Positions 1-12,696 of a stretch of 52,043 nt of DNA are shown here, one piece after another (positions within the stretch are counted from its first letter, which is position 1; every line of letters starts with the position of its first letter). The stretch comes from Bifidobacterium breve. Its GTDB lineage: Bacteria > Actinomycetota > Actinomycetes > S36-B12. The stretch lies in contig CAMAVT010000002.1 in NCBI GenBank assembly GCA_945861775.1, positions 1 to 52,043 of the forward strand, read 5' to 3'. Below the pieces are notes generated by a model, which was given only the letters and a program-made list of their open reading frames with translations, was not told the DNA's origin and did no database searches. The translations under genes were made by a program, and so were the position numbers.

Positions 1-886
1 CTGCGGCACTTGCCCAACGCAGTGCTTCGTTCAATGGCTGGCCTTCATTGAGCGCAACGGCAAGTCCGCCACAAAATGCATCACCTGCCGCAACAGAGTC
101 AACGGGAACAATCCGGAATGCGGCGGCCTGGCCAGATGCCGTAGCCGTGGACCACACGGCACCTTTTTCGCCGCGCGTGATTACGACAGTGCCAACACCC
201 AAATTCACAATTGATGATGCCAATTCGACAAAATCCAACATGGAATTAAATGAGTTGCCTTCTAATTCGACAAGTTCCTTCGCTTCGTGCTCATTAGGAA
301 TCAAGTAATCAACTAGGGGAAACAGTGATGCAGGGAAATTACGAATTGGGGCGGGATTCAGAATTGTTATGGCGCCTAGTTCTTTAGCAACATTCAGAGC
401 CCTGTGGGTTGCGGCGACAGGTACTTCACCTTGGGTGAGCACGAGACCGATTTGTTGGTGGCTGGCGATCTCGCGCAGTGAAGATTCCACTATTTCTTCC
501 GAGAGCATGCTGTTTGCGCCAGAGACCACGATGATCTTGTTTTCACCGGACGTAGCCACTTCAATCAGAGCAATTCCTGTGCTGGACTCTGAAATTTTGC
601 CGACATGGGAAGTGATGGCTTCAGTGGCGAGAGTGGCGAGGAGTGCGTCCCCGAAGGAGTCGTTCCCGACCGCGCCAATCATCGCGACATTGGCGCCCAA
701 TCGTGATGACGCGACGGCTTGGTTGAGACCTTTGCCACCGGGGAACTGCTCGAATGTTTCTCCCAAAACAGTCTCACCAGTTTGTGGAAAGGCGCCAAGT
801 GTGACAACAAAGTCTGTGTTCAGGCTTCCCACGACAACGATCACTTTTTTACCGGGCCGCGATTCATTGTTTAGGGGTTCATTCAC
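1..886 (-). CDS. rbsK: Ribokinase (PfkB family), C-terminus runs off the window start
   Basis: Minus-strand translation from GTG at 886 gives VNEPLNNESRPGKKVIVVVGSLNTDFVV...FPGGKGLNQAVA...IPNEHEA...DSVAAGDAFCGGLA, which are typical ribokinase motifs. It is absent from the ORF track because it is open at the window edge. An internal GTG about 40 nt downstream (KKVIVVVG) is an alternative start. Confidence 0.8.
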   Translation of the reverse strand, partial: MNEPLNNESRPGKKVIVVVGSLNTDFVVTLGAFPQTGETVLGETFEQFPGGKGLNQAVASSRLGANVAMIGAVGNDSFGDALLATLATEAITSHVGKISESSTGIALIEVATSGENKIIVVSGANSMLSEEIVESSLREIASHQQIGLVLTQGEVPVAATHRALNVAKELGAITILNPAPIRNFPASLFPLVDYLIPNEHEAKELVELEGNSFNSMLDFVELASSIVNLGVGTVVITRGEKGAVWSTATASGQAAAFRIVPVDSVAAGDAFCGGLAVALNEGQPLNEALRWASAA

Positions 887-947
887 GGCAGGATACTGTC
901 ATGGCAGGCTAGGCGGAGCGAAGGCAATACGTAGCTGGGAGAAGTAC

Positions 948-1382
948 ATGAAAATCGCAGTAGCAAGTGACCATGCGGGATTTGAGTTAAAGAGTGCTTT
1001 GAGCTCCTGGCTGCTCGAGATGGGCCATGAGGTCTACGACGCTGGGGTATTCACGCAAGAGCGCGCCGATTACCCAGAGTTTGGGGCTGAACTCGGAAGG
1101 TTGGTCGCAGCGGGCGAAGCGGAAGTAGGCGTTGCCGTGTGCGGGAGCGGTCAAGGAATCTGCATGGCCGCAAACAAGATTCATGGGGTTCGTGCGGTGG
1201 TGATTCGCACCGTCGAAGATGCGCAACTTTCACGGGCACACAATGATGCGAATGTTGCTTGTTTTGGCGGCCGCGTGAGCGATCCCACAACAGCTCAAGA
1301 AGCCTTGGCGGTCTTTCTGTCCACTACATTTGAAGGCGGTCGGCATGCAGCTCGTGTTGACCAACTCAACTCATTAATTTAG
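948..1382 (+). CDS. rpiB: Ribose-5-phosphate isomerase B
   Basis: MKIAVASDHAGFELK...VAVCGSGQGICMAANK...RAHNDANV matches the RpiB/LacAB family. It is in frame with track ORF 369-1382, whose N-terminal part is antisense to rbsK and spurious. Confidence 0.9.
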   Translation: MKIAVASDHAGFELKSALSSWLLEMGHEVYDAGVFTQERADYPEFGAELGRLVAAGEAEVGVAVCGSGQGICMAANKIHGVRAVVIRTVEDAQLSRAHNDANVACFGGRVSDPTTAQEALAVFLSTTFEGGRHAARVDQLNSLI

Positions 1383-1453
1383 TGGAACCGATTCTTCCAT
1401 TAAATCGTCTAACACATACCTGGCTAATACGGCCAACGACTTAGGAGAAATAC

Positions 1454-1840
1454 ATGAAAACCATGAATAAGTTCGCTGCAATTGGTGCCATTGGCATCCT
1501 TGGTGTGACAGTTCTTGCCGGTTGTTCAAGCAGCGAGGAAACCGCAACCGATACCGCGACTGCTTCAGAGTCAACCCAGATGCTTCCACCCGTGATTATT
1601 ACCGTTGATCAGATGGATGCGGCTGCAGTTGTTGGCGACATGATCGACATCGTGGTTGACGATCCAGTAAACACGGTCATTGCGGTCGACAATGCCGATG
1701 TCCTCGAAATCACTCAAGGCTCCGACGACGGCAGCGCAATATTTAATCCAGGTGCAAAGGCACTTGCTGCAGGAACTGCAACAATCACGGTAACGAATCC
1801 TGACGGTTCAACCCGTAACATCGTGGTTGTCGTTTCCTAA
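1454..1840 (+). CDS. Secreted lipoprotein, possibly with an Ig-like (Big_2-type) domain
   Basis: Signal peptide with lipobox LAGC|SSS. An AGGAG Shine-Dalgarno lies 6 nt upstream. The C-terminal ATITVTNPDGS motif resembles bacterial Ig-like domains. Confidence 0.6.
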   Translation: MKTMNKFAAIGAIGILGVTVLAGCSSSEETATDTATASESTQMLPPVIITVDQMDAAAVVGDMIDIVVDDPVNTVIAVDNADVLEITQGSDDGSAIFNPGAKALAAGTATITVTNPDGSTRNIVVVVS

Positions 1841-1860
1841 AGATAAAGACTAAGTACCAT

Positions 1861-2739
1861 TTGCCGGTGTCCCCTCACATAGCCCTCGCGACCTGCGAGG
1901 AACTGCCTGATCTTGATCCTGATGACCAACCTTTGGTTGAGCTCTTTCACAAGATAGGTATTGAGGCGACACCGGCTATTTGGTCTGATCCAACAATTCA
2001 TTGGGCTGGCTTTGATCACATCATTGTTCGAAACACGTGGGACTACACGAATCGGCTTGACGAGTTCCTCACTTGGGTAAAGACCTACCAATCTCGCATC
2101 CAGAATTCATATGAAATTATTTTATGGAATTCCAACAAGACTTATCTCAAAGATTTGGCCGTTGCTGGATTCCCAATAGTTGAGACGCAATTCGTCACCG
2201 ACCCCCACAGTGATTGGGAGCCACCACTCCTCGGAGATTTCGTGGTGAAACCGACCGTCTCCGCTGGCAGCCAGGACACCATGCGGATGAGAACCAGCGA
2301 TCCTGATTGCACAAGCAGGGCGAACGAATTAATTGAGCGAATTATTTCTCAAGGGAAAACCGCTATGGTGCAGCCATACATGATGGCCGTTGACGAAATC
2401 GGCGAAACGGCACAACTTTTCATTGGTGGCGAATACTCGCACGCAATCCGCAAGGGCCCGTTACTTGTACCCAATGTCGAGGGGGAGAAAGAACATGGGC
2501 TATTTCTCAAAGAAGACATTTCACCCCGTGAGCCAAAGCCGGAACAGCGAGAATTGGCTACGGCGGTAATGGGTTACGTCTCACAACGATTTGGGGTGCC
2601 TTTATACGCTCGAGTTGACCTGCTCGAAGACTCGGAGGGCAAACCGGTCATTCTGGAACTCGAACTCGTGGAACCATCGATGTTCTTTGCCACCGCTCCT
2701 GAATCAGCAGCCCGGCTTGTTCATCAGTTTCAGCAGTAA
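1861..2739 (+). CDS. ATP-grasp domain protein (RimK/DcsG-like), substrate unknown
   Basis: IALATCEELPDLDPDD...VVKPTVSAGS...YARVDLL...PVILELELVEPS is the usual pattern of small actinobacterial ATP-grasp ligases. The start may be TTG 1861 or GTG 1867. Confidence 0.65.
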   Translation: MPVSPHIALATCEELPDLDPDDQPLVELFHKIGIEATPAIWSDPTIHWAGFDHIIVRNTWDYTNRLDEFLTWVKTYQSRIQNSYEIILWNSNKTYLKDLAVAGFPIVETQFVTDPHSDWEPPLLGDFVVKPTVSAGSQDTMRMRTSDPDCTSRANELIERIISQGKTAMVQPYMMAVDEIGETAQLFIGGEYSHAIRKGPLLVPNVEGEKEHGLFLKEDISPREPKPEQRELATAVMGYVSQRFGVPLYARVDLLEDSEGKPVILELELVEPSMFFATAPESAARLVHQFQQ

Positions 2740-2857
2740 GTTCACATCCGGATTGGAACCTACGGATCAATCCTTGATCATTCATAAGCCATTCCTGATC
2801 GCCATCGGGACCAGATTCATTCACGTGTGAGCAGCCAATAGGATTCATTGGTACGTT

Positions 2858-2894
2858 GGGGTTGCGGGACTGGTCTGAAATTCAATTTCCCTCA
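2858..2894. repeat. Repeat A, copy 1 (GGGGTTGCGGGACTGGTCTGAAATTCAATTTCCCTCA), left boundary of the precursor-array segment
   Basis: About 33/38 ungapped identity to 5361-5397, in the same orientation. Confidence 0.7.
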
Positions 2895-3127
2895 CAAAAA
2901 TGACCCACGTTGAGTGCTTCCGGAACGCCAAAACTCTTTTTTGGAACGCGCCACGAGGAAAACCGGGTTTTCTAGAGCAAAACAATGACTCAGCCTCAAC
3001 TTCACAGGTCGGGTGCTTGTCGACCACTGACGCTGCGAACGACTAACTGAGTGATCAGCAGATTGCTTCCCCCAATCGCTGCATGCGTTATATCGTTTGG
3101 CTAAGTACTTAGCGATGCGGAGGAATT

Positions 3128-3394
3128 ATGGATGCTCAGGGTTTTTTAGCAGCACTCACCCCAGCGGTGACGGATGCGGATGCGCGGGAACGTTTTCTTG
3201 CTGACCCCAAAGCAGTATTAGCGGCTGCTGGGTTGGACCTACCGGAGTCGTTCAAGGTGACTGCACGGGAAGGTGATGCAGCCGAAATCACCATCACTCT
3301 GCCGGCCCTACTCGACCCGGATACTGACCTCAGCGAGGAACAGCTCGCAGCGGTAGGCGGGGGTTCGGAACGATGGATTGGGGGTGGCACGTGA
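3128..3394 (+). CDS. NHLP-like leader peptide precursor 1, predicted core SERWIGGGT
   Basis: MDAQGFLAALTPAVTDADARERFLADPKAVLAAAGLDLPESFKVTAREGDAAEITITLPALLDPDTDLSEEQLAAVGGG|SERWIGGGT. GGAGGA lies 6 nt upstream of the ATG. Confidence 0.8.
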   Translation: MDAQGFLAALTPAVTDADARERFLADPKAVLAAAGLDLPESFKVTAREGDAAEITITLPALLDPDTDLSEEQLAAVGGGSERWIGGGT

Positions 3395-3556
3395 ATCTGT
3401 ATGGGTAGAGGGTAAGTAAATGGGCGTGGTTGACTAACCCGCCCGTCTTGGTGTGGAGTGTGGGCGGGGATGTTCGCTGAGTGATACGCAGATTGCTTTC
3501 CCCAAGTGGTTAATGCGGACTATCGTTCCGGTAACTACTTAACATGTGGAGGATGT

Positions 3557-3826
3557 ATGGATGCTCAAAGTTTTTTAGCGGCTCTTACCCCGGCGGTGAC
3601 TGATGCGGATGCGCGGGAACGTTTCCTTGCCGACCCGAAAGCAGTACTAGCAGCCGCGGGTTTGGATTTACCGGAGTGGTTCACGGTGACTGCACGTGAA
3701 GGTGATGTAGCCGAAATCACCATCACCGTGCCGGCCCTACTTGACCTTGAAGCTGACCTCAGCGAGGAACAGCTGGCGGGGGTTTTTGGTGGATGCTGTG
3801 ATTGCGACGCCTGGGGGGGTAGGTAG
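3557..3826 (+). CDS. NHLP-like leader peptide precursor 2, predicted core CCDCDAWGGR
   Basis: Same leader, ending ...LSEEQLAGVFGG|CCDCDAWGGR. The start is set at the conserved ATG, because the track's GTG 3506 extension is not conserved as coding in the other units. Confidence 0.8.
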   Translation: MDAQSFLAALTPAVTDADARERFLADPKAVLAAAGLDLPEWFTVTAREGDVAEITITVPALLDLEADLSEEQLAGVFGGCCDCDAWGGR

Positions 3827-3995
3827 AGGGTTATGTGTAGGTAGTAGGTGAGTGGGCGTGGTTGGCTAACCCACCCGTCTTGGTGTGGAGTGTGAGCGCG
3901 TGCAGGCGGGCGTTCACTAAGTGATCGGCAGATTCCTTCCCCCATTGGTTAATGCGTTGTATCGTTCCGGTAACTACTTATCATGCGGAGGAATT

Positions 3996-4259
3996 ATGGA
4001 TGCTCAAGGTTTTTTAGCAGCTCTTACCCCGGCGGTGACTGATGCGGATGCGCGGGAGCGTTTCCTTGCTGACCCGAAAGCGGTGCTGGCAGTTGCGGGG
4101 CTGGATCTACCGGAGTGGTTCACGGTGACTGCACGTGAAGGTGATGCGGCTGAACTGATCATCACCGTGCCCCACCTAGGCCTCCCGGATGCTGACCTCA
4201 GCGAGGAACAACTCGCAGCGGTGGCTGGGGGGGTCGTGGATCAAGGTTCTGCTTTTTAA
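3996..4259 (+). CDS. NHLP-like leader peptide precursor 3, predicted core VVDQGSAF
   Basis: Same leader, ending ...LSEEQLAAVAGG|VVDQGSAF. Conserved ATG with GGAGGA upstream. Confidence 0.8.
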   Translation: MDAQGFLAALTPAVTDADARERFLADPKAVLAVAGLDLPEWFTVTAREGDAAELIITVPHLGLPDADLSEEQLAAVAGGVVDQGSAF

Positions 4260-4418
4260 AATAGTAGGTGAGTGGGCGTGGTTGGCTAACCCACGCGTCT
4301 TGGTGGTGGGGGGTGAGCGCGGGTCGGCGGGCGTTCACGGAGTGATAGGAAGATTGCCTCCCCCCATTGGTTAATGCGTTGTATCGTTTCGGTAACTACT
4401 TAATGTTGTGGAGGATGC

Positions 4419-4685
4419 ATGGATGCTCAAGGTTTTTTAGCAGCGCTCACCCCAGCGGTGACTGATGCGGATGCGCGTGAACGTTTCCTTGCTGACCCCA
4501 AAGCAGTACTGGCAGCTGCGGGGCTGGACCTACCGGAGTCCTTCAGGGTAAGTGCACGTGAAGGTGATGCAGCCGAAATCACCATTACTCTGCCGGCCCT
4601 ACTCGACCCTGATGCTGACCTCAGCGACGAACAACTAGCCGCTGTCACGGGAGGGGTTGGGCCCGAAGACGTTAATGCAACTTAG
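4419..4685 (+). CDS. NHLP-like leader peptide precursor 4, predicted core VGPEDVNAT
   Basis: Same leader, ending ...LSDEQLAAVTGG|VGPEDVNAT. Confidence 0.8.
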   Translation: MDAQGFLAALTPAVTDADARERFLADPKAVLAAAGLDLPESFRVSAREGDAAEITITLPALLDPDADLSDEQLAAVTGGVGPEDVNAT

Positions 4686-4835
4686 GTGGTAGGTGAGTGG
4701 GCGTGGTTGGCTAACCCGCCCGCCTTGGTGGTGTGTGGTGTGGACGGGGATGTGCACTGAGTGATATGAAGATTGCTTTCCCCATTGTTTGTCGCGGTGT
4801 ATCGTTCCGGTAACTACTTATCATGCGGAGGAATT

Positions 4836-5102
4836 ATGGATGCTCAAAGTTTTTTAGGAGCTCTTGCCCCAGCGGTGACGGATGCGGATGCGCGTGAACG
4901 TTTTCTTGCTGACCCGAAAGCGGTGCTGGCAGCTGCGGGTCTGGATTTACCGGAGTCGTTCAAGGTCAGTGCACGTGAAGGTGATGCGGCTGAACTCACC
5001 ACTACGCTGCCGGCCCTACTTGACCCTGAAGCCGACATCAGCGAGGAACAACTAGCCGCTGTCACGGGAGGGATGGCTCCAAAAGACCTTATTGCCGGGT
5101 AG
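4836..5102 (+). CDS. NHLP-like leader peptide precursor 5, predicted core MAPKDLIAG
   Basis: Same leader, ending ...ISEEQLAAVTGG|MAPKDLIAG. Confidence 0.8.
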   Translation: MDAQSFLGALAPAVTDADARERFLADPKAVLAAAGLDLPESFKVSAREGDAAELTTTLPALLDPEADISEEQLAAVTGGMAPKDLIAG

Positions 5103-5262
5103 GTGGCAGGTGAGTGGGCGTGGTTGGCTGGCCCACCCGCCTTATAAAGCGGCTCACACCTTCACTTCACTCAACACCTTCTCTCGCGTAAGCGTGCCTC
5201 GATTCACCGATATATTGGTGGTTCTACCTTTTGTAAGTGAAATCTCGACTTAATGGCCTCGA

Positions 5263-5367
5263 GACAGGCCCCTTTGCAGTCAGCACTTCTCACAGATAAC
5301 CTTGCCCCGGCGATTGGTTCAATTTCAGACCGAATTTCGGTCCAAATACCCACCAGTCCCGGGGTCG
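5263..5367. repeat. Repeat B, copy 1: a duplicate of the tRNA-Lys upstream leader plus its first 6 nt, with no tRNA attached
   Basis: 105 nt align without gaps to 8067-8171. The 3' 78 nt (5290-5367 against 8094-8171) differ at one position. Confidence 0.85.
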
Positions 5368-5397
5368 TGGGACTGGTCTGAAATTCATTTCCCCTCA
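5361..5397. repeat. Repeat A, copy 2 (GGGGTCGTGGGACTGGTCTGAAATTCATTTCCCCTCA)
   Basis: Direct repeat of 2858-2894. Its first 7 nt (GGGGTCG) overlap the end of repeat B, and the same heptamer spans the 5' boundary of tRNA-Lys. Confidence 0.7.
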
Positions 5398-5507
5398 TTA
5401 AATAGGTTAGTGAACCGACCGCTAGGAACGTGAAGGCCCTTATCCGCGAGCGTCTATCCCTGGGTTTGAGAACGCAGGACCGGTGATACAAGCAGCGGAA
5501 TCAGGAT

Positions 5508-6428
5508 TCAATCAGTTAGGTCCGCAAGAACGTCATTCCACAGGGGCTTGGCTTCTTCCCGAAAGTAGCCCATGTGACCCAGTGATGACACCCCAAGAGC
5601 GCTGGGACGAAGATCGCGAGTGGTGACCTTCGCATTGACGTAGAAGGACATGAATGCATCCCGGGATCCGGGAGGGATCCAACGGTCATCAGTTGAGTTG
5701 ATTGCCACGATGGGAACATCAACCCTTTCGAACAGGGCAATCATTTCAGAACTTATGTCAGGATCCTCGAAGAAGTGGTGTGGGTATCGGCACCAACGCT
5801 TCCACTGTTGGTACACGTCAAGTGGAAGGTCTTCGCCGAGACCTAGACGGCTCCACGCGAGATAACCTGCGCTGCGCGTGATCACGGGTCCGGCGAGGTC
5901 CCAGAGAAGGCGGACTCGTAACCGTTCTAGTCGAGGCATGTACCCGCTCCATCCGGTACCTGTGCCAAAGGCATGCATGGACTGCAGACGCGAAGGGTCA
6001 GGTAGCAGCCCGAGCGCCTGACCACCGAATGAGTGGGCCACGAGATGGGTGCTCAGGTGATCATCGGCGGTGTCTTCGACGATGGCAGCGAGGTCTAGAC
6101 GACCCCAGTCCCGGTAATCCATGCGGAACCCGCGAAGTGTGGCAGGCGCGGAATCCCCGATACCTCGGTAGTCAAACGTGACAACGTCGAACCCAGCATT
6201 GGCTGCATGGGTGGCGAATCGTCGGTAGAACCCCTGCGGAACACCGGTGGCGCCCGCCATCACAATGCGTGCGCGTGGGTCAGGTGCCGAATAGCGGCGA
6301 ACAGCGAGCCGGTAGCCGTCGGCTGCAGTTACCTGATATGTCATTGGTTCAACGTCAGGGGTATGTCCGCCGGCACGGTTCGTGCTCACGCTGGCCACTG
6401 GATCGCGCAAGGCCCAAGCGCCGGCCAC
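5508..6428 (-). CDS. Alpha/beta-fold hydrolase
   Basis: Nucleophile elbow VAHSFGGQA, length typical of alpha/beta hydrolases, GC-rich. An alternative start at 6344 (MTYQVTA) is possible. Confidence 0.7.
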   Translation of the reverse strand: MAGAWALRDPVASVSTNRAGGHTPDVEPMTYQVTAADGYRLAVRRYSAPDPRARIVMAGATGVPQGFYRRFATHAANAGFDVVTFDYRGIGDSAPATLRGFRMDYRDWGRLDLAAIVEDTADDHLSTHLVAHSFGGQALGLLPDPSRLQSMHAFGTGTGWSGYMPRLERLRVRLLWDLAGPVITRSAGYLAWSRLGLGEDLPLDVYQQWKRWCRYPHHFFEDPDISSEMIALFERVDVPIVAINSTDDRWIPPGSRDAFMSFYVNAKVTTRDLRPSALGVSSLGHMGYFREEAKPLWNDVLADLTD

Positions 6429-6516
6429 TCGTATAACGAGCAGGGCAGCTCGAGGGTATGGATTGGGATTACAAGCACGGCAACTCCTTGCGCTGTTAAA
6501 CGAACAACAAATAAAC

Positions 6517-6559
6517 TATGATAAGCGTCATATTTGTACACTATGCACATTGTCATAGT
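6517..6559. promoter_or_regulatory. Two short palindromes in the divergent hydrolase/TetR intergenic region, candidate TetR operator
   Basis: TATGA-6 nt-TCATA (6517-6532) and ACTATG-8 nt-CATAGT (6540-6559) share the half-site CTATG/CATAG. Confidence 0.3.
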
Positions 6560-6579
6560 CAAGGGGAAGGGGCGCATAG

Positions 6580-7137
6580 GTGTCCTCGGAGTCGCGCAAC
6601 CGCATGATCGCCGCAGCAACCAGGCTCCTTGCCCGAGAGGGACTCGAGGGGACGTCTTTTTCGACCGTGCTCGCCGAGAGTGGGGCCCCGCGCGGTTCGA
6701 TCTACCATCACTTTCCCAAAGGTAAGGATCAACTCGTGCGCGAGACCGTCGAGGTCGTCGGCAGCCGCTTTGTGACCTACCTCGACAGTTTGGCGCCGTC
6801 AACACCGCTCGATGCGGTGCGTGAGGTTACCGCCGTGTGGCGAAACGTTCTTGAGACCTCGCAGGTGACGTCGGGTTGCGCTATCGCAGCAGTCGCTGTG
6901 GCAGGTGACAGAGGTCCGCGCACGGCGACGGGCGAGGTTTTCATCGTCTGGCAGGCTTCAATCTCAGCGCTGCTCCAAAGATCGGGTCTAAATAAGCCCT
7001 CCTCGGATGCGATCGCGCCAATGATGATCGCCGCGATCGAGGGAGCTCTGGTGATCTCCCGAGCGCAGGAATCCCTGATTCCGTTCGATTCCGTCGTCGC
7101 CCAACTTGAGCGACTCGTCATGATTGAGTTGCCATAG
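6580..7137 (+). CDS. TetR/AcrR family transcriptional regulator
   Basis: N-terminal helix-turn-helix NRMIAAATRLLAREGLEGTSFSTVLAESGAPRGSIYHHFP. Divergent from the hydrolase gene. Confidence 0.85.
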   Translation: MSSESRNRMIAAATRLLAREGLEGTSFSTVLAESGAPRGSIYHHFPKGKDQLVRETVEVVGSRFVTYLDSLAPSTPLDAVREVTAVWRNVLETSQVTSGCAIAAVAVAGDRGPRTATGEVFIVWQASISALLQRSGLNKPSSDAIAPMMIAAIEGALVISRAQESLIPFDSVVAQLERLVMIELP

Positions 7138-7277
7138 CGTTCAAATGCCGAGGTCTAAACACCCGCGCACCGCTCACAACTCTCTGCACCACCTGGTCAA
7201 TGAATGTGAAGAGTAGATCCATTAGATGAACCACCGAATTACCCGCGAGAAACAATGATATTTGTTATATTTTATTG

Positions 7278-7985
7278 ATGGCTATTCGGATTGCGGACAA
7301 TCTATATCGACTCCCAACTCTTGGTCCATTCATTAATTCATATGCACTACTCAACACTGATTCTTCAATCACTCTCGTTGACTGCGGATTAGCAGGTTCC
7401 TCCAAAAGGCTTATCAAGGATCTGGCAAGAATCGGTAAGCACCCGAGTGATGTTGTCAATATCGTCTTAACCCATGCCCATGATGATCACGTTGGAGCGG
7501 CATCTCAGATGATCAAGGAATGTGAAGTTCAAAATGTAATGATGCATGAAGAAGATTCTCATTTACCTCCAACCGGTAAAACGCCACCAATAGATGATTC
7601 ACGCCTCTCTGGCAAAATAATGAAGATTCTTCCAGAACGAAGTTATGAACCTTTTTCTATCACAAATAAGTTGAAGGACAATGAAATCATTGACACAGCA
7701 GGTGGATTGCAGGTGATTCACACCCCTGGGCACACTGCCGGGCACATATCTTTACTACATTTTGAAAGTGAAACGCTAATTACAGGTGATTCCATTTTCA
7801 ATATGACCTCAAGAATGACCTGGGCACTTAGTGGCTTCTGCGTGAATTACAAACAGTCTCAGGAGAGCGCAGAAAAGTTCTCAGATTTGGACTTCAAAAA
7901 TGCCTGCTTCACCCACGGGCCAGAAATCAAGAACTTGGGCAAAAGCAAAATAAGGCAATTCCTGAGCAAAAAAGGTTTGAATTAA
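7278..7985 (+). CDS. MBL-fold metallo-hydrolase
   Basis: THAHDDHVG (HxHxDH) and a later HTPGHTAGH motif. The gene is visibly AT-rich compared with its neighbours. Confidence 0.8.
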   Translation: MAIRIADNLYRLPTLGPFINSYALLNTDSSITLVDCGLAGSSKRLIKDLARIGKHPSDVVNIVLTHAHDDHVGAASQMIKECEVQNVMMHEEDSHLPPTGKTPPIDDSRLSGKIMKILPERSYEPFSITNKLKDNEIIDTAGGLQVIHTPGHTAGHISLLHFESETLITGDSIFNMTSRMTWALSGFCVNYKQSQESAEKFSDLDFKNACFTHGPEIKNLGKSKIRQFLSKKGLN

Positions 7986-8066
7986 TTTTGGCGTGCAGTG
8001 ACAAACTTGAATCTCCGGAGATGTTTCTACCGCTTTGGCGCTTAAGTCTTGTCGTGATGGCAACTA

Positions 8067-8171
8067 GACAGGCCCCCTTTCACTCACCACCGCTCACAGA
8101 TAACCTTGCCCAGGCGATTGGTTCAATTTCAGACCGAATTTCGGTCCAAATACCCACCAGTCCCGGGGTCG
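8067..8171. repeat. Repeat B, copy 2: the leader immediately upstream of tRNA-Lys, running into its first 6 nt
   Basis: See 5263-5367. Confidence 0.85.
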
Positions 8172-8237
8172 CTAGCTCAATGGCAGAGCTGCGGACTTTT
8201 AATCCGTAGGTTCCCGGTTCGAGCCCGGGGCGACCCA
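8166..8237 (+). tRNA. tRNA-Lys (anticodon UUU)
   Basis: Manual cloverleaf: acceptor GGGTCGC/GCGACCC, D arm GCTC-AATGGCA-GAGC, anticodon stem GCGGA/TCCGT with loop CTTTTAA, T arm CCCGG-TTCGAGC-CCGGG, discriminator A. CCA is not encoded. Confidence 0.92.
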
Positions 8238-8501
8238 CCGCGAACAAACCGGAGTTCATTGCCGCGCTGATGTAAGCCATATTCCTGGATAGGAAAGTCA
8301 AAGCTTCATACCGTGGGGAGAGCGTGTAGAGGTTCCTCAATTGGGTCTCCCGAGCCACTCGACTGACTAGTCAGCGAAAACTGATGTCGGTCATGCTCGT
8401 CACACCTCATTGCGCTAACGTCCGACCATTCCCTTGGTTCCGGTTGGCAGGCCGCGGGCGACGGGAACAGTCATGATGACTTCGTCACGAAGGAGCACCT
8501 C

Positions 8502-9383
8502 TTGACACTCGCGATCATTCTTGCCTACGTAATCGGAGCCACAGCGGGGTTCGCGATTGCCCGAACTGGCAAGTTCGCGACAGAGTGGCGAGTCTTCATT
8601 CGCACCCAATTGCTCTTGTCAAGCGCGCTCATCTCATTACTAGCAGGATGGCAACTGGGCGGCTGGTCGGACTTGCTTTGGCCGGTGCTCGTGACCGCTG
8701 TGTGCGTGCTGCTGATCGGCATCGCCTATCTTCTGACACCGGCATCGCCGAGTCGGCCAGCGCATGCCGTTCTGGGCGGGTGGTCCGCCATCCCCAACCC
8801 CGGGTTTTGGCTGGTCCCGATGTCAGACGCGATCGCCGGCGGACCTGGCGTCATCGTGGCGGTCTTCATCGACCGACTAGCCCGTGCCGTTTTCGGAGTA
8901 TTCGTCTGGATCCTGCGTCGCCACGCACCCATCCGTCAACGAAAGCGCACGTCCTTCATCGACGAGGCGCCTTTCATTGCCCTGATCGCTGGGCTGGTGC
9001 TCAACTACTTCTCCGATGCTCCCGAGTGGACATGGACAGTCATTAACTTTGCGGCACCAGTTCTGGCAGCTACGGGTGCGGCCGTGTTCATTGGCTCGGT
9101 CATGCACCCCAGTCAGCAGATTGCGTGGCGGCCCGGTGTCCGAGTGTGGGTCATCCTCACTCTCGTGCGCATCGCCTTGATGGTGCCGATGGTCCTGCTG
9201 GCTCCCACGCCGGCCATCGCGGTTGTTCTCGCCTTGGGCGCCTTCAGTATCCCTGCGTTCTTCCCCCCACAGTTCTCAGTGTTGTACGGGTACACCGACT
9301 CTGTGGTGGCGGCTTCTGTTCGTCTGGCCTGGTTCCTGGCTCCGATTGGCGTGGTCTGGGCATTGCTGATCATGCGGGTGTAG
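8502..9383 (+). CDS. Polytopic membrane protein, probably an AEC (auxin efflux carrier) family transporter
   Basis: About 10 hydrophobic segments over 293 aa. IPNPGFWLVPM resembles the AEC NTGF.G.P motif. The gene is GC-rich. Confidence 0.5.
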   Translation: MTLAIILAYVIGATAGFAIARTGKFATEWRVFIRTQLLLSSALISLLAGWQLGGWSDLLWPVLVTAVCVLLIGIAYLLTPASPSRPAHAVLGGWSAIPNPGFWLVPMSDAIAGGPGVIVAVFIDRLARAVFGVFVWILRRHAPIRQRKRTSFIDEAPFIALIAGLVLNYFSDAPEWTWTVINFAAPVLAATGAAVFIGSVMHPSQQIAWRPGVRVWVILTLVRIALMVPMVLLAPTPAIAVVLALGAFSIPAFFPPQFSVLYGYTDSVVAASVRLAWFLAPIGVVWALLIMRV

Positions 9384-9486
9384 CTGCCCCGTTGGGGTGC
9401 AGTGCACTGCAAACCAAATGGGCGCTGACCGCGAGCCCTGCAAGACACCCTTCCATGTCCCGGTATTTTTGTAGTACGATATTCAA

Positions 9487-9636
9487 GTGCGTGAAGTTGG
9501 CATCAACGCCAGTGCCCGACGGCACCGGATCGAGGATGCCGACATCAGGCACGCGATCGCTCACGCTGTCTTCAGCGACGACATCGACCCCGAGCCCCCG
9601 GTTCGTCGACTCCTGGGAGGACACCGCAATGACTAA
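9487..9636 (+). pseudogene. Truncated toxin-like small ORF paired with the downstream RHH gene
   Basis: VREVGINASARRHRIEDADIRHAIAHAVFSDDIDPEPPVRRLLGGHRND*. The ...ARRH.I...DI.HA... start resembles small actinobacterial proteins found upstream of CopG-type partners, but it stops after 49 codons. It overlaps the RHH start by 8 nt. Confidence 0.3.
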
Positions 9637-9904
9637 GAAGAAAGTCCTTGGCGCCTCAGGCGGTCAAGCAATCACTCAGGCCGATGTTGAACGAATGGCC
9701 GACGAGGCCGAACGTGGCTACAGCGACGCCCATCTGCGTCACGTAGGACGAGGCCGGCCCGCAATGGGCGACGGTCCTGCAAAGGCAGTCCAGGCCAGAC
9801 TGGACCCGGAGCTGCATGCGGCACTTGAGCGACGCGCCAAGGCCGATCAGAAGACATCGAGCGAGATTGTTCGCGAAGCTCTCCAAGAATATCTTTTTGC
9901 GTAA
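9629..9904 (+). CDS. Ribbon-helix-helix (CopG-like) antitoxin-type protein
   Basis: The C-terminus VQARLDPELHAALERRAKADQKTSSEIVREALQEYL is an RHH signature. GGGAGG lies 8 nt upstream of ATG 9629. The rest of track ORF 9125-9904 overlaps the preceding transporter gene and is spurious. Confidence 0.7.
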   Translation: MTKKKVLGASGGQAITQADVERMADEAERGYSDAHLRHVGRGRPAMGDGPAKAVQARLDPELHAALERRAKADQKTSSEIVREALQEYLFA

Positions 9905-9973
9905 GCCGAAACCCATCGCAATCGTTCAATATTCAGGTTTCTAAGGTGTCATTGGAAAGGCTTCTAATTCTTG

Positions 9974-10002
9974 GGTTCTCGGATCGAGTCCGGGGTGACC
10001 GA
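9974..10002 (+). repeat. Degenerate direct copy of the tRNA-Lys 3' half (T arm plus acceptor), att-like
   Basis: GGTTCTCGGATCGAGTCCGGGGTGACCGA against tRNA 8209-8237 GGTTCCCGGTTCGAGCCCGGGGCGACCCA: 24/29 identical, same orientation. Confidence 0.55.
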
Positions 10003-10044
10003 CTTTCCGGTGGTACGTTTGATGAGCCTGAGGGAGGTTGATTC

Positions 10045-10344
10045 ATGCCACAGTTGGCGACACAGTCAGAGATAACGTCTTTTCTTGATCTCAATGCGAA
10101 CTGGTCGAGAAATGAAAATGCACTTACTTCACAGTTCACGGCACCAAGTTTTCTCGCGGCCATTGATTTTTTTAATGCGGTTGCGGTGATCGCTGAAGGG
10201 TTGGATCATCATCCTGATATTGATATTCGTTGGAACAAAGTGATTTTTGCCCTGAGCACGCATTCCGCTGGCGGAATTACAACTCTTGACTTTGAGTTAG
10301 CCGTAGCGATTGACGCAGCAGCCGGCAAATTGTTGGAAGGTTGA
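10045..10344 (+). CDS. Pterin-4-alpha-carbinolamine dehydratase
   Basis: AEGLDHHPDIDIRWNKVIFALSTH is the PCD/DCoH signature. Confidence 0.85.
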   Translation: MPQLATQSEITSFLDLNANWSRNENALTSQFTAPSFLAAIDFFNAVAVIAEGLDHHPDIDIRWNKVIFALSTHSAGGITTLDFELAVAIDAAAGKLLEG

Positions 10345-10347
10345 GCG

Positions 10348-10803
10348 GTGGGTTCTAAGGCTTATGACCGTTTGTGGGGGACAGCGCTGCGCACAACAAC
10401 GATTCTTCACCGTGCTGTTTATTCGGTAAGTGGTGGAAAACTTGGTCGTCACTTCCCCGGTGGTGCACAGGTCGTGTGGATTACAACCCTGGGTCGAAAA
10501 AGTGGTGAGTGGCGAAAAACTCCCCTGCTTGCCGTTCCAGATCTCGGTGGCTGGGGAATTGCCGGTTCTAATGCGGGTCAGGAAAAAATCCCTGGTTGGG
10601 TTTTCAACGTGAAAGCACACAATAAAGGCCGCGTTGAGATTGATGGTGAAGTGAGTGAAGCCGAATTCACCGAGGTTCACGGCGAGGAAGCAGCACGTAT
10701 TTATGCGGCTCTTGGTGATACATGGTCCTCATATCGCATGTATGAGCGCAATATAGAAAGGGATATTCCCGTATTTCGAGTGAGCAAAATCCCCACGATT
10801 TAG
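10348..10803 (+). CDS. Deazaflavin (F420)-dependent nitroreductase-family oxidoreductase
   Basis: ITTLGRKSGEWRKTPLL...GSNAGQEKIPGWVFNVKAH matches the DDN-like family pattern. Confidence 0.75.
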   Translation: MGSKAYDRLWGTALRTTTILHRAVYSVSGGKLGRHFPGGAQVVWITTLGRKSGEWRKTPLLAVPDLGGWGIAGSNAGQEKIPGWVFNVKAHNKGRVEIDGEVSEAEFTEVHGEEAARIYAALGDTWSSYRMYERNIERDIPVFRVSKIPTI

Positions 10804-10851
10804 CCTCAATATTGGTCCGCCATGCATGGACATAATTGATATCGGCATGAT

Positions 10852-12672
10852 GTGTCGGTGTCCTCCCCCCAACAAGTCAATCTGCTTAGCTGCGAAAACG
10901 TCTCGAAATCATTCGGGGACCGCCCATTATTGAGTGATGTTTCCCTCGGCGTGAGCAAAGGCGAACGAATCGGTGTTGTCGGTCGCAATGGTGCTGGCAA
11001 GAGCACCTTGCTTCGAGTCCTCGCTGGAGCAGAACCTGCCGATTCGGGTCGGGTGACCCGCGGTGCAAGTGTTGTGGTCGGCGAACTGGACCAGGTCGGG
11101 ATTAGCGCGGAGAACGCGACAATTCGCAGTCACGTGATGGGGGATCGTGATGAACATGAATGGGCGAGTGATGCGGCTGTCCGCGAGATCTTGACGGCGC
11201 TATTGGGTGGTTTTGGACCCGAGGAACTCGATCGCAGGATTGCTGATCTTTCCGGCGGGGAGCGCCGCCGCGCCTACTTGGCCGAGCAATTAATCCGCGA
11301 AGTCGACGTTTTATTTCTTGATGAACCAACTAACCACCTCGACGTTGAAATTATTGCCTGGCTTGCTGCGCATCTTAAAAATCGTCCAAAAATTGCGATC
11401 GTCACCGTCACCCATGATCGCTGGTTCCTTGATGAAGTCTGTGACCACATGTGGGAAGTCGTCGGTGGCAAAGTCGAAGAGTATGAAGGCGGTTACTCCG
11501 CTTTCGTTCTTGCGAAAGCCGAGCGCATGCGCCAGGAATCAGCGAGTGAAGCGCGCCGGCAGAATCTCATGCGCAAGGAGCTTGCATGGTTGCGCCGCGG
11601 CCCACCCGCACGAACCACCAAACCACAGTTCCGCATTGACGCAGCGAATGAACTCATTGCAGCGGAGCCACCACCGCGCAACGCAGTCGAGTTGTTGGAG
11701 TTTGCTAGTGCTCGTTTAGGTAAAACTGTCTATGAACTCCATGACGCCAAAATAGGTTTTGAGACGAAAACCCTGATTAATCACATCACGTGGAATATCG
11801 CCCCGGGTGGTCGTATTGGGATCTTGGGACCAAACGGTGCCGGTAAAACATCCGTGTTGCGATCAATCCTTGGTGAAATCCCGCTCCTTGCTGGCAAACG
11901 TGTTGAGGGTGTCACGGTTAAGCCGGGGGTCTTGAGTCAACATTTGGCTGATTTGGATCTGAGTAAAACTGTTATTGACACGGTCTCTGACGTAGCTAAT
12001 TACATTGAACTGGGCAAAGGAAAGCAAATGAGCGCCAGTCAAGTGTGTCAGCGACTTGGATTTGATCATGATGGACAATTCACGCGAGTGGGTGAACTTT
12101 CCGGTGGGGAACGTAGACGCTTGGAGTTGACTCGGATCTTGATGTCAGAGCCCAATGTGTTAGTGCTCGACGAACCAACAAATGATTTTGACGTTGAAAC
12201 GTTGGCTGCGTTGGAAGACCTGCTCGACGGTTTCCCAGGAACACTTCTCATTATTTCCCATGATCGGTATTTCTTAGAACGGGTCTGCGACAACTTTGTT
12301 GCCGTGATCGGTGACCTCAACTTCACAGATCTTCCTGGCGGAATTGAACAGTATTTGGACCTTCGAAAGAAAATGCTGGCCGGGGCATCCGGCAAGCCCA
12401 CTTCAGGTGGTGCAGGTGAGGGCAAGGGCACCTCTAAGTTGACCCCTGCTAGGGAGCGGGAGCTTCGCAAATTGACCGACAAATATAAGCGCCAACTGGC
12501 AAAACTCGAGGCTTCGATTGGGTTGATCCACGACCAAATGCTCGAGTTTGCGAGTGATTTTGAACGCGTTGCCCAACTTGATAGGGAACTTCGGGACCTA
12601 AATGAGTCAAAAGAAACTATTGAGTTGCAGTGGCTTGAGGCCGCTGACGAACTTTCAGACGGGCGTCAATAA
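10852..12672 (+). CDS. ABC-F family ATPase (two ABC domains, no transmembrane domain)
   Basis: Two Walker A motifs ([18 protein letters not shown]), two LSGGERRR signatures and a coiled-coil C-terminal tail. Confidence 0.9.
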   Translation: MSVSSPQQVNLLSCENVSKSFGDRPLLSDVSLGVSKGERIGVVGRNGAGKSTLLRVLAGAEPADSGRVTRGASVVVGELDQVGISAENATIRSHVMGDRDEHEWASDAAVREILTALLGGFGPEELDRRIADLSGGERRRAYLAEQLIREVDVLFLDEPTNHLDVEIIAWLAAHLKNRPKIAIVTVTHDRWFLDEVCDHMWEVVGGKVEEYEGGYSAFVLAKAERMRQESASEARRQNLMRKELAWLRRGPPARTTKPQFRIDAANELIAAEPPPRNAVELLEFASARLGKTVYELHDAKIGFETKTLINHITWNIAPGGRIGILGPNGAGKTSVLRSILGEIPLLAGKRVEGVTVKPGVLSQHLADLDLSKTVIDTVSDVANYIELGKGKQMSASQVCQRLGFDHDGQFTRVGELSGGERRRLELTRILMSEPNVLVLDEPTNDFDVETLAALEDLLDGFPGTLLIISHDRYFLERVCDNFVAVIGDLNFTDLPGGIEQYLDLRKKMLAGASGKPTSGGAGEGKGTSKLTPARERELRKLTDKYKRQLAKLEASIGLIHDQMLEFASDFERVAQLDRELRDLNESKETIELQWLEAADELSDGRQ

Positions 12673-12696
12673 ACGTTGGGGCGATAGACTGCGCTT

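Follow-up and report, generated by a model that had tools for sequence, protein, structure and literature searches.

The prochlorosins of marine picocyanobacteria are encoded by dozens of precursor genes and are modified by the promiscuous enzymes ProcM/SyncM, and promiscuity of the ProcM type is marked by a Cys-Cys-Gly zinc-ligand motif. The Nanopelagicales and their relatives, which are among the most abundant bacteria of lakes and estuaries, are thought to be streamlined and poor in secondary metabolism. Combinatorial sets of RiPP precursors have also been described with a nitrile-hydratase-alpha-like leader peptide (NHLP); the precursors (TIGR03793) are linked with the export genes TIGR03794, TIGR03796 and TIGR03797, and are present in 12 copies in Pelotomaculum thermopropionicum and in 8 copies in Azospirillum sp. 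B510 (Haft, Basu & Mitchell 2010). Here, we have analysed a stretch of DNA of 52,043 nt (the window) carrying five tandem genes. We propose that this array is probably a satellite set of five RiPP precursor genes from a divergent, Nanopelagicales-specific subfamily of the NHLP clan, the products of which are processed in trans. This family of precursors is apparently undescribed; a literature search on lanthipeptides or RiPPs of the Nanopelagicales and on a link between reverse transcriptases (RTs) and RiPP precursors, incomplete in its coverage and weak as evidence, returned no description of it.

The distances between the starts of successive genes are 429, 439, 423 and 417 bp, and Tandem Repeats Finder (TRF) detected one array with a period of 417/439, 4.7–4.9 copies and 78% matches (Table 1). 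Each unit is composed of an upstream region, a Shine-Dalgarno site (GGAGGA, 5–7 nt ahead of the ATG in 5/5 copies), a leader of 79 amino acids that is nearly identical among the copies and ends in Gly-Gly, a core and a 3′ element. From the unit alignment, we obtained mean pairwise identities of 70–81% for the 90 nt upstream of the genes, 79–93% for the leader, ∼30% for the core and 87% for the 45 nt past the stop codon. Residues G78 and G79 are invariant, and the identity falls from ∼80–90% to ∼30% right after them. The anatomy proposed in the earlier note, namely five tandem ORFs spaced by 417–439 bp, each having its own GGAGGA and a leader–GG–core layout in which a common N-terminal region gives way to unrelated tails, was thus reproduced with exact coordinates and the same tails of 8–10 residues, which cannot be aligned. 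A consensus scan of the array found neither a sigma-70 promoter nor an intrinsic terminator for the individual units, and tRNA-Lys was the only known RNA family found in or around it (Rfam, E ≤ 1).

Table 1. Positions of the array, its units and the adjoining features in the window
Feature	Position	Strand	Remarks
42-nt direct repeat, left copy	2858..2899	+	86% identical to 5361–5402; repeat D6; brackets the array
Tandem array of five precursor units	3046..5143	+	TRF, repeat families D1–D3, unit alignment
Copy 1	3128..3394	+	Leader 3128–3364, SFKV subtype; core 3365–3391, SERWIGGGT; TIGR03793 E = 5.2e-12, 45.5 bits
3′ motif after copy 1	3420..3440	+	21-nt core of the conserved post-stop element
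Copy 2	3557..3826	+	Leader 3557–3793, WFTV subtype; core 3794–3823, CCDCDAWGGR; TIGR03793 E = 1.3e-8
3′ motif after copy 2	3852..3872	+	21-nt motif match
Copy 3	3996..4259	+	Leader 3996–4232, WFTV subtype; core 4233–4256, VVDQGSAF; TIGR03793 E = 2.2e-10
3′ motif after copy 3	4272..4292	+	21-nt motif match
Copy 4	4419..4685	+	Leader 4419–4655, SFRV subtype; core 4656–4682, VGPEDVNAT; TIGR03793 E = 3.1e-12
3′ motif after copy 4	4697..4717	+	21-nt motif match
Copy 5	4836..5102	+	Leader 4836–5072, SFKV subtype; core 5073–5099, MAPKDLIAG; TIGR03793 E = 6.9e-11
3′ motif after copy 5	5114..5134	+	21-nt motif match
Right array boundary	5240..5402	+	Duplicate of the tRNA-Lys upstream region plus 42-nt repeat; repeats D4, D6
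tRNA-Lys(UUU), anchor of the variable region	8166..8239	+	ARAGORN; Rfam tRNA, 68 bits

The best NCBIfam match of all five ORFs was the NHLP model TIGR03793 (E = 1.3e-8 to 3.1e-12), with alignments spanning model positions 12/13–77 of 77 in each case. The scores (34.6–46.2 bits) are under the curated cutoff of 50.9, and the array therefore represents a divergent subfamily of the NHLP clan that would not be named by NCBI's pipeline. The earlier assignment to the NHLP family is right as to the best, full-length match, but it does not reach the cutoff of the model. We also observed weak matches to the C-terminus of the nitrile hydratase (NHase) alpha subunit, at positions ∼115–174 and all under the cutoffs (TIGR01323, E = 8.5e-4 to 0.12; PF02979, E = 2e-4 to 0.025). 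The Nif11 leader model, TIGR03798, did not match any of the five copies at E ≤ 10, and Cys is absent from all five leaders; NHLP leaders in general are similar to the nitrile hydratase alpha subunit but have no CxxCSC metal site. Possible homology of the leader to a folded enzyme subunit, together with a window devoid of a peptidase, would suit 88-aa products that stay uncleaved and work as small proteins of the NHase-alpha type, each tagged with a variable C-terminus (e.g. in immunity, regulation or as scaffolds). This is extremely unlikely, as the invariant Gly-Gly lies exactly at the end of conservation and the family is co-localised with exporters that have a C39 peptidase and with modifying enzymes that depend on a leader.

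The dN/dS ratio of the leader is 0.07–0.27 (mean 0.15) and drops to ∼0.04 over codons 1–40. In these codons, dS among the copies is ∼0.5 and dN is 0.02, which indicates long-term purifying selection on each copy. Between copies 1 and 2, the same stretch has 17 codon differences, 16 of them synonymous; this count had been made before and we reproduced it, and the conclusion drawn at that time, of a leader under purifying selection with a tail free to vary, agrees with our ratios and with the low identity of the cores. Such selection is hard to reconcile with an array that is mere debris, or a selfish cassette copied by recombination or by a retroelement, in which short tails came from premature stops and serve no present function. 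Window cores are indeed among the shorter ones of the family (range 4–27 aa, median 12); copy 2 is one stop/sense codon away from its CCDCDA relative, its WGGR extension being due to a single TGG versus TGA difference; truncated and frameshifted members of the family occur in loci L013, L025 and L030; and the array resides in a recombination hotspot between tRNA-derived repeats. However, none of the five ORFs is disrupted, each has its Shine-Dalgarno site and core types are kept between genomes, and we regard an origin as debris as very unlikely.

The hotspot could be followed in detail at the right boundary, where 5240–5367 duplicates 8044–8171 (88% identity), that is, the 128 nt upstream of tRNA-Lys including the first bases of the tRNA, and is fused to the 42-nt repeat at 5361–5402. 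The related locus L009 is devoid of window positions 5368–8043, so that the array abuts tRNA-Lys there; it has two copies at the same site, as against five in the window, and the core of copy 4 is identical at this site, with flanking DNA ∼90% identical. In natural populations, cassettes have been replaced between identical flanks in L042–L045. The survey of related genomes suggested in the earlier note thus revealed both a change of copy number and a turnover of cores. The strain of L008 is 99.99% identical to the window over 215–15102 and has the same five cores. L008 overlaps L005 at 100%, and by a contig walk we placed a YcaO gene and a sixth precursor there, ∼13.5 kb upstream of the array. 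The match between the window and the L008/L005 strain ends on the left at a recombination breakpoint, at ∼215, and the nearby YcaO gene is therefore established for that strain and not for the window genome. Relatives of the family were absent from the viral contigs that we searched for a phage origin.

At the family level, we obtained 717 database matches at E ≤ 1e-3, and in the best 120 of these the leaders are 78–100% identical and the tails diverse. From a genome scan, the family was observed almost only in MAGs of 'Candidatus Nanopelagicales', one of which, M30B76, has at least eight members at five loci. The lineage is uncultured and lives in freshwater and estuaries.

Next to these genes in relatives, we found the enzymes of RiPP maturation. 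LanM is directly upstream of members in L018, L021 and L023 and is also present in the L001 cluster; YcaO adjoins members in L005, L012, L013, L018 and L027; SagB is directly upstream of members in L001 and L012; and export genes are present in L001, L028 and L030. The LanM of L021 (10506–13841) scored 542 bits with TIGR03897 (cutoff 304) and has the motif HVCCGNSG. SagB scored 97 bits with TIGR03605 (cutoff 78), whereas for YcaO we obtained 76 bits with TIGR03882 (cutoff 37) and 218.9 with TIGR03604 (cutoff 219.25). In L001, a HlyD-like gene and the TIGR03796 and TIGR03797 exporters lie 2–8 kb from a member; these are the best matches of the exporters (766 bits against a cutoff of 853, and 532 bits against 709), both below the equivalog cutoffs, and the C39 catalytic signature is intact. 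In the 52-kb window, a Pfam search of essentially all ORFs ≥150 aa yielded housekeeping genes only, with no maturation enzyme or exporter. As the family stands beside LanM, YcaO, SagB and an export set in relatives and the window has no such enzyme, it is likely that the array is served in trans, as the prochlorosins are. The product class, which had been left open, is narrowed by this context to LanM, YcaO with SagB, and an NHLP-type C39 exporter. A DcsG-like ATP-grasp upstream of the array (1861–2739) is a real member of its fold (PDB 6jil, E = 1.7e-37); we rejected it as a tailoring enzyme, since it is confined to the syntenic site and does not accompany the family at other loci.

We then considered the chemistry that the cores could undergo. 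Among 131 distinct family tails, 65% have Cys and 52% have Cys together with Ser/Thr. None of the five window cores has both; judged from their residues, none can form a lanthionine and they are not standard lanthipeptide substrates, as had been suggested. Copy 2, with three Cys in CCDCDA, is likely to be an azol(in)e substrate, and a gene with a CCDCDA core is directly downstream of the SagB dehydrogenase gene in L001. The remaining cores have no Cys and 0–2 Ser/Thr, and that of copy 5 has neither Cys nor Ser nor Thr, so the known chemistries cannot explain most of the array. Several of these short core types are kept across MAGs and samples, e.g. VGP[EG]DV..T and M..KD[VL]..[GT]: the type of copy 1 was seen again as SESVWLGGGT and SEWKSIGGGT, and that of copy 5 as MGQKDVIAG, MGYKDVIAG and MDQKDLGAT. 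For the copy 3 core, no close relative was found among the 131 distinct tails.

These features leave room for another explanation, in which most of the array encodes unmodified peptides: the Cys-free 8–9-mers of copies 1, 3, 4 and 5 would be cleaved from a double-glycine leader and secreted linear, as signals or class-II-bacteriocin-like peptides, and the SF[KR]V leader subtype would mark this route. The leader end, LSEEQLAAVxGG, fits the classical double-glycine motif LSxxELxxIxGG (Haft 2010); copy 5 offers no target residue to LanM or YcaO; the core types are kept, as seen for copy 4 in L009; and Cys-free cores are found in 20/24 cases on the SF[KR]V subtype versus 38/125 on the WF subtype, although these counts are inflated by sequence relatedness and by the use of copy 1 as the search query. 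On the other hand, a 79-aa NHase-like leader far exceeds the need of export alone. Moreover, in L021 the nonapeptide-type MDQKDLGAT lies immediately upstream of LanM and the Cys-free SGVWYVGIS immediately downstream, which suggests that the enzyme does see such substrates. We consider the secretion of unmodified peptides possible, but not the likely explanation. It agrees with the trans-processed RiPP set on export, and modification is the sole difference.

We favour the trans-processed RiPP set, and it may operate as follows. Each gene would be translated by means of its own Shine-Dalgarno site, giving a 79-aa leader followed by a core of 8–10 aa. Maturation enzymes whose genes lie at other places in the genome would recognise the precursors by the conserved leader; they would comprise a LanM resembling ProcM, a SagB-type dehydrogenase and a fused YcaO cyclodehydratase that has a leader-binding domain. 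An NHLP-type ABC exporter would cut the precursors at the LSEEQLAAVxGG end of the leader with its C39 peptidase domain, and would thereby free and secrete the short core. Copy 2 would probably receive azolines or azoles; copies 1, 3 and 4 could undergo at most dehydration at Ser/Thr; and copy 5 might be exported unmodified or be altered by other chemistry. Diversity of the cores would come from the turnover of whole cassettes, by recombination in the leader and in the 3′ motif flanking the core, to which fast non-synonymous change of the core would add.

This 3′ motif, a conserved element of ∼45–75 nt, is present past nearly every stop codon of the family, including 5/5 in the window, and is exclusive to the 3′ ends of precursors. 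Its 21-nt core occurs five times in the window versus none in 100 shuffles, and the array pattern therefore cannot be due to chance. We rejected it as a hairpin or terminator (single-sequence folds were no better than shuffles, z = −1.5 to +0.8) and as a conserved RNA structure (RNAalifold of 36 versions gave −4.3 kcal/mol and no compensatory pair), and because folding gave no support we treat it as a sequence motif. It is also not read-through coding, as its frame relative to the stop differs between copies. A sequence-conserved motif after the stop codons of the family appears to be a new feature.

The most interesting lead is the RT that accompanies this motif. To our knowledge, the UG4 class of RTs has no known function and is unusual in its family in having no defence-island enrichment. 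In published reports, UG4 is described only as lacking enrichment in defence islands, as lying close to fimbrial genes in some cases and as a possible retromobile element. In 16/16 RT-seeded loci, we observed a UG4-class RT (PADLOC, 194 bits) convergent to a precursor of the family, with a stop-to-stop gap of 55–111 nt that is filled exactly by the post-stop motif. This link appears to be new; the window itself has no RT gene. The RT is under purifying selection, and its motif, SLSPLL, reads as group-II/retron-like, in contrast to the SQ motif of diversity-generating retroelements (DGRs). Internal RT fragments are all 5′-truncated and keep the 3′ end beside the post-stop motif, as in target-primed reverse transcription, and between otherwise identical contigs the varying core is the RT-adjacent one. 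We rejected a DGR, as the RT is of the UG4 class, no TR/VR-like repeat pair was found in L012 or L025 and core lengths vary; cores that are unequal in length and unalignable cannot be produced by adenine mutagenesis. A group II intron was also rejected, with no intron RNA match in L012 or L025 (Rfam, E ≤ 1). It is conceivable, though on the whole unlikely, that the UG4 RT and the post-stop motif form a retroelement-like module by which RiPP core cassettes are copied, moved or replaced, with the window array as an RT-less product in which each unit keeps the 3′ terminal motif of the element. If true, reverse transcription would be one way in which natural combinatorial diversity of peptides arises. 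More simply, the RT may just be carried along, or be a parasite, targeting the motif, and homologous recombination in the leader and the motif may do all the shuffling. The all-or-none linkage of RT and precursor nevertheless provides a hypothesis for the function of UG4 as well as for the generation of RiPP core libraries.

Finally, we compared the array and its family with the known systems. With the NHLP sets (Haft 2010), they share the long NHase-alpha-like leader, the Gly-Gly at the end of conservation, the hypervariable tail, several paralogues per genome and, in the relatives, a fused cyclodehydratase, SagB, LanM and the three-gene HlyD/C39-ABC/ABC export set. They differ in precursors and exporters that score under the curated cutoffs, in the uncultured freshwater/estuarine Nanopelagicales as hosts, in many very short, Cys-free cores with their own leader subtype, and in their own 3′ motif and linked UG4 RT, neither of which is mentioned in the accessible part of that description. 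A fused leader-binding/YcaO enzyme and SagB beside members, and the Cys-rich CCDCDA, resemble the linear azol(in)e peptides (TOMMs); unlike these, only 1/5 window cores is Cys-rich, and in L012 the gene flanked by SagB and YcaO has the Cys-free core IVGHLVFMSVR, in which Ser occurs once. With double-glycine class II bacteriocins and pheromones, the family has in common an LSxxELxxIxGG-like motif, a C39 peptidase-ABC exporter in relatives and mature peptides that may be short and unmodified, whereas its 79-aa NHase-related leader exceeds the usual 15–30 aa and modifying enzymes are co-localised. That some very short Cys-free core types are conserved between genomes and have their own leader subtype points to a class of products, or a role in signalling, that the known chemistries do not cover. 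As in DGRs and other RT-based diversifiers, there is a tight linkage between the RT and the 3′ end of a gene with hypervariable C-terminal codons, and the 3′ boundary of the variable region is fixed beside a conserved motif; the UG4 class, the SLSPLL motif in place of SQ and a locus without a template/variable repeat pair set it apart.

The prochlorosins/synechococsins (ProcA/SyncA, with ProcM/SyncM) also have many precursors with a conserved leader and a hypervariable core, many of them encoded at a distance from the enzyme and frequently in tandem, in an abundant planktonic host. The family-linked LanM has the Cys-Cys-Gly motif, as does ProcM, and in both systems a gene for a nucleic-acid enzyme and C-terminal fragments are found among the precursors (tnpA_REP there, the UG4 RT here). 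Unlike the prochlorosins, the family has an NHLP-type and not a Nif11-type leader, the leader family is common to at least two classes of enzyme (LanM and YcaO/SagB), 0/5 window cores are predicted to form a lanthionine, and the gene found in association encodes a reverse transcriptase and not an ssDNA transposase. The function and the diversification of the prochlorosins are open questions, and the short Cys-free core types and the RT linkage of this family could make open questions testable. A leader family with hundreds of distinct cores, common to lanthipeptide and azoline machineries, would give the marine prochlorosins a counterpart in freshwater Actinobacteria.

The five tandem precursor genes (copies 1–5, numbered 5′ to 3′) lie exactly where the earlier note had placed them. 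Its reading of this array as RiPP precursors with a leader–Gly-Gly–core layout was also upheld; the observation holds, and we regard these genes as a satellite set of RiPP precursors of the NHLP (nitrile-hydratase-like leader peptide) clan in a freshwater actinobacterium. Start-to-start spacing was 429, 439, 423 and 417 bp. Tandem Repeats Finder reported a single array at 3046–5143 (period 417/439; 4.7–4.9 copies; 78% matches), and five copies of the unit were also resolved by a separate repeat search. We aligned the five units and used the mean pairwise identity to describe their anatomy. The ~90 nt upstream of the ORFs showed 70–81% identity, with GGAGGA placed 5–7 nt before each of the five ATGs, and the 237-nt leader showed 79–93%. 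The core (~30 nt) showed ~30% identity with length differences, and the ~45 nt directly 3′ of the stop codon showed 87%.

Within codons 1–40, copies 1 and 2 differ at 17 codons, 16 of them synonymously, precisely as had been counted before. The accompanying claim of purifying selection on the leader was borne out by dN/dS values of 0.07–0.27 (mean 0.15; Nei–Gojobori, ten pairs); in leader codons 1–40, dS was 0.54 and dN 0.02. These values indicate that the copies are old paralogues, each under purifying selection.

The leader had been likened to the NHLP family, and TIGR03793 was the best NCBIfam match for every copy (E 1.3e-8 to 3.1e-12), with alignments spanning model positions 12/13–77 of 77 in all five and scores of 34.6–46.2 bits, under the curated cutoff of 50.9. 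Other NHLP-clan models matched more weakly, as did the C-terminal region of the nitrile hydratase alpha subunit; the Nif11 models gave no match to the array ORFs in the NCBIfam profile search. The leader end, LSEEQLAAVxGG, agrees with the classical double-glycine motif LSxxELxxIxGG, and when 12 diverse leaders were aligned, G78 and G79 did not vary. The defining paper (Haft et al.; PMC2887384) describes an NHLP by a nitrile-hydratase-like leader without the metal site, a Gly-Gly where conservation ends, a tail that is hypervariable and an export system of its own. By these criteria, the array leaders are a divergent NHLP-clan subfamily, which automatic annotation would leave unnamed.

A Pfam scan of essentially all window ORFs of at least 150 aa found actinobacterial-type housekeeping genes only, including rpiB, an ABC-F protein, NDH-2, upp, gcvH, dnaX, recR, ask and asd, and also a class A PBP and an F420H2-dependent reductase. 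The same scan gave no match in the window to LanM, YcaO, radical SAM enzymes or C39 exporters. A DcsG-like ATP-grasp gene ends 389 bp upstream of the start codon of the first precursor. We do not regard it as belonging to the peptide system, as it is present at the syntenic site only and absent beside the family elsewhere, and it is probably unrelated to the peptides. At 48267–49466 (+), 43 kb from the array and without evident link to it, a colicin V production (CvpA) membrane domain is fused to a trypsin-like protease domain.

In a protein search, 717 relatives passed E ≤ 1e-3, and among them the best 120 have 78–100% leader identity and very different tails. Most relatives are on short contigs, which would be expected where repeats break up an assembly. 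Scanning one genome per species gave 32 family loci, whose hosts are almost all 'Candidatus Nanopelagicales' or unclassified Actinobacteria MAGs from lakes and estuaries (loci or contigs of related genomes are denoted L001–L061). An 87%-identical leader fragment at a contig end of a Rubricoccaceae bin (L035, Bacteroidota-type) is probably mis-binned. A Solirubrobacterales MAG (L040) holds a relative with 41% identity, which indicates more distant NHLP-like kin in other Actinomycetota.

Modification and export genes were observed beside family members in these relatives (see table). The cyclase domain of the LanM carries Cys-Cys-Gly at the position of Cys-His-Gly in most LanMs, a mark of ProcM-like, substrate-tolerant enzymes. 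The fused YcaO scored 218.9 bits against TIGR03604 (cutoff 219.25). The best matches of the exporters are the NHLP export models, with both scores under the cutoffs, and the exporter's C39 domain (L001:13241 to ~13700) retains its catalytic signature. A long-read MAG, M30B76, holds at least eight family members at five loci. The enzyme adjacency and this spread together indicate a system in which a single leader type serves several enzymes and is spread over several loci. Directly 3′ of the LanM–precursor pair in L021 (14535–17332), we also noted a type III polyketide synthase (DpgA/chalcone-synthase-like) and a FAD-dependent geranylgeranyl-reductase-like gene, which may have tailoring roles or form a small-molecule cluster of their own.

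Features of the array, its surroundings and related loci (window positions unless a locus is named)
Feature	Location	Strand	Remarks
Precursor ORFs, copies 1–5	3128-3394, 3557-3826, 3996-4259, 4419-4685, 4836-5102	+	
Motif GTGGGCGTGGTTGGCTAACCC after copies 1–5	3420-3440, 3852-3872, 4272-4292, 4697-4717, 5114-5134		≤3 mismatches
DcsG-like ATP-grasp enzyme	1861-2739	+	PDB 6jil E 1.7e-37; NF058666 213 bits, under cutoff
42-nt direct repeat bracketing the array	2858-2899 and 5361-5402		
Duplicate (128 nt) of the sequence immediately 5′ of tRNA-Lys	5240-5367 / 8044-8171		tRNA-Lys at 8166-8239
LanM, 1112 aa	Immediately 5′ of members in L018, L021 (10506-13841), L023; also L001 cluster		TIGR03897 542 bits (cutoff 304)
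YcaO, 711 aa, fused leader-binding domain	Adjoins members in L005 (2385-4517), L012, L013, L018, L027		TIGR03882 76 bits (cutoff 37)
SagB-type dehydrogenase	Immediately 5′ of members in L001 (8635-9897), L012		TIGR03605 97 bits (cutoff 78)
HlyD-like gene and two ABC transporters	L001, L028, L030		Best matches TIGR03796 766 bits, TIGR03797 532 bits
UG4-class reverse transcriptase	L012:6060-6932; L025:10362-11234 and 9411-9790	-	

Contig overlaps connect the array to one of these enzymes. L008 carries the same five cores and differs from window positions 215–15102 by two mismatches only (5002 and 5209), and it overlaps L005 over 5354 bp with 0 mismatches. On L005 there is a YcaO as well as a sixth precursor with the core FSGGVGDRCGWK; by this overlap they would lie ~13.5 kb and ~13 kb, respectively, upstream of the first array gene. 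L008 and the window differ at 22 positions in total, and the other 20 cluster at 22–214, in the 3′ end of a pfkB-like gene (−), indicating a recent recombination breakpoint there. The upstream YcaO is thus established for a near-identical strain, and we infer it for the genome of the window. The array precursors are most likely served in trans.

Next, we considered what the cores could become. Among 131 distinct family tails, length ranged from 4 to 27 aa with a median of 12, and the window cores fall at the short end. Cys occurs in 65% of these tails and makes up 9.8% of their residues; 52% combine Cys with Ser/Thr, and 9% lack Cys, Ser and Thr. None of the five window cores has both Cys and Ser/Thr, and lanthionine is therefore excluded for all five. 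The sole plausible azol(in)e substrate among them is copy 2 (CCDCDAWGGR), the core of which is shared with the gene directly behind SagB in L001; its WGGR extension comes from a single TGG versus TGA difference from that relative.

The core types of copies 1, 4 and 5 (SE.W.GGGT, VGP[EG]DV..T and M..KD[VL]..[GT]) were found in many samples, and the copy 4 core is identical in L009, where the flanking DNA has ~90% identity. In the alignable nonapeptide type, pN was 0.32 in the core versus 0.07 in the leader. On these sequence patterns, we concluded that the short recurrent cores would be functional. Leader residues 41–44 read SF[KR]V in copies 1, 4 and 5 and WFTV in copies 2 and 3. Family-wide, 20 of 24 cores behind an SF[KR]V leader are Cys-free, versus 38 of 125 behind the WF subtype (Fisher p = 1.6e-6, which is overstated as the sequences are related). 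This hints that the two leader subtypes may mark separate processing routes. LanM or YcaO chemistry does not account for the short cores; the candidates are dehydration only, no modification, or a further enzyme.

The conserved stretch behind the stop codons contains a motif, GTGGGCGTGGTTGGCTAACCC, with five occurrences in the window, one per gene, where none is expected by chance. Related loci totalling 508 kb contain it 70 times, and in 67 instances a family stop codon precedes it by no more than 120 nt; the remaining three are located at degenerate copies or contig edges. It follows 71 of the 92 members having enough downstream sequence. The motif showed no sign of being a structured RNA or terminator: folding energies were no better than those of shuffles, no pair showed a compensatory change among 36 versions, and no T-tract terminator was called at it. 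It is more conserved than synonymous sites of the adjacent leader, which argues that it is under selection as sequence.

The family is further linked to a reverse transcriptase (RT) of class UG4 (PADLOC, 194 bits). L012 has a 291-aa RT between two precursors. Whole or fragmented, the RT is convergent to and just 3′ of precursors in L013, L017, L018, L025, L027, L028 and L032; a fragment occurs in L001, and the RT or its 5′-truncated fragments are convergent to a family precursor also among L041–L061. A reverse search seeded from the RT, not the precursor, gave 21 loci with close relatives (≥82% identity). A convergent family precursor was present at all 16 of these with at least 300 nt past the RT stop, several being the same locus in different metagenomes (~10 distinct configurations). 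The stop-to-stop gap at the 16 loci is 55–111 nt, and the conserved post-stop element exactly fills it. Two distant RTs (27% identity) had no precursor nearby. We found no intron RNA around the RT (Rfam) and no template/variable repeat pair in L012 or L025. Full-length RT copies show dN/dS of 0.13–0.32, and the contig-internal fragments are all 5′-truncated, retaining the end that abuts the motif. UG4 RTs are not enriched in defence islands and have a predicted non-defence function (PMC9226505); group II introns aside, no other class of bacterial RTs shows hints of retromobility (PMC2602772). The window itself contains no RT, so that this linkage bears on the family and not directly on the array.

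The rpiB/tRNA-Lys site holding the array varies between relatives. It contains five precursors in the window and L008, two in L009 (GSPIGAIPRK and VGPEDVNAT), and another core in the more distant L002. Both sets of direct repeats around it derive from tRNA-Lys, namely from its 5′ flank together with the first bases of the gene. The 128-nt repeat brackets the next 2.7 kb, encoding an abhydrolase, a TetR regulator and a metallo-beta-lactamase-fold protein; L009 lacks this segment, and its array abuts the tRNA. No integrase was found near these repeats in the window. The bracketing repeats and the absence of the segment from L009 mark the site as a recombination hotspot. Partial rpiB-like sequence (residues 74–150, 61% identity) was observed at L012:4294-4524, L041:3489-3719 and L045:6403-6633, where, in other lineages, it adjoins the precursor–RT–SagB–YcaO cluster. 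The hotspot near rpiB that carries the window array thus appears to be the one occupied elsewhere by the biosynthetic cluster.

The clearest instance of cassette exchange comes from L042–L045. Rightwards from one precursor's stop codon, these loci are 100% identical for >1.5 kb; left of it, an entirely different core is present, preceded by a mosaic leader with 84–100% identity. Most parsimoniously, cassettes are shuffled by recombination between leaders and motifs, and the RT is either a passenger or an element that targets the motif; we consider it unlikely that the RT itself causes cassettes to be duplicated or replaced. As a separate observation, L025 has a 4.85-kb island (6976–11901) between perfect tRNA-Gln duplicates (73-nt direct repeat, 6976–7048 and 11829–11901), containing one intact and two truncated family members together with an IS3-type integrase ORF (8348–9061), an RT fragment and a full RT.

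We found no description of the family in the full-text literature on the lineage or on an RT–precursor link, within an incomplete coverage. The RT–precursor arrangement resembles that in Prochlorococcus, where tnpA_REP genes and their C-terminal fragments face procA genes, with a causal role unproven (bioRxiv 10.1101/2020.03.09.984088). The array may be likened, by analogy, to the prochlorosins of the ProcA/ProcM system of marine picocyanobacteria. The closest system is that of the NHLP combinatorial systems of Haft et al. The family is distinguished by its lineage, by one leader family common to LanM and YcaO/SagB, by very short, conserved cores that lack Cys and follow a leader subtype of their own, by a dedicated 3′ motif and by the linkage to a UG4 RT.
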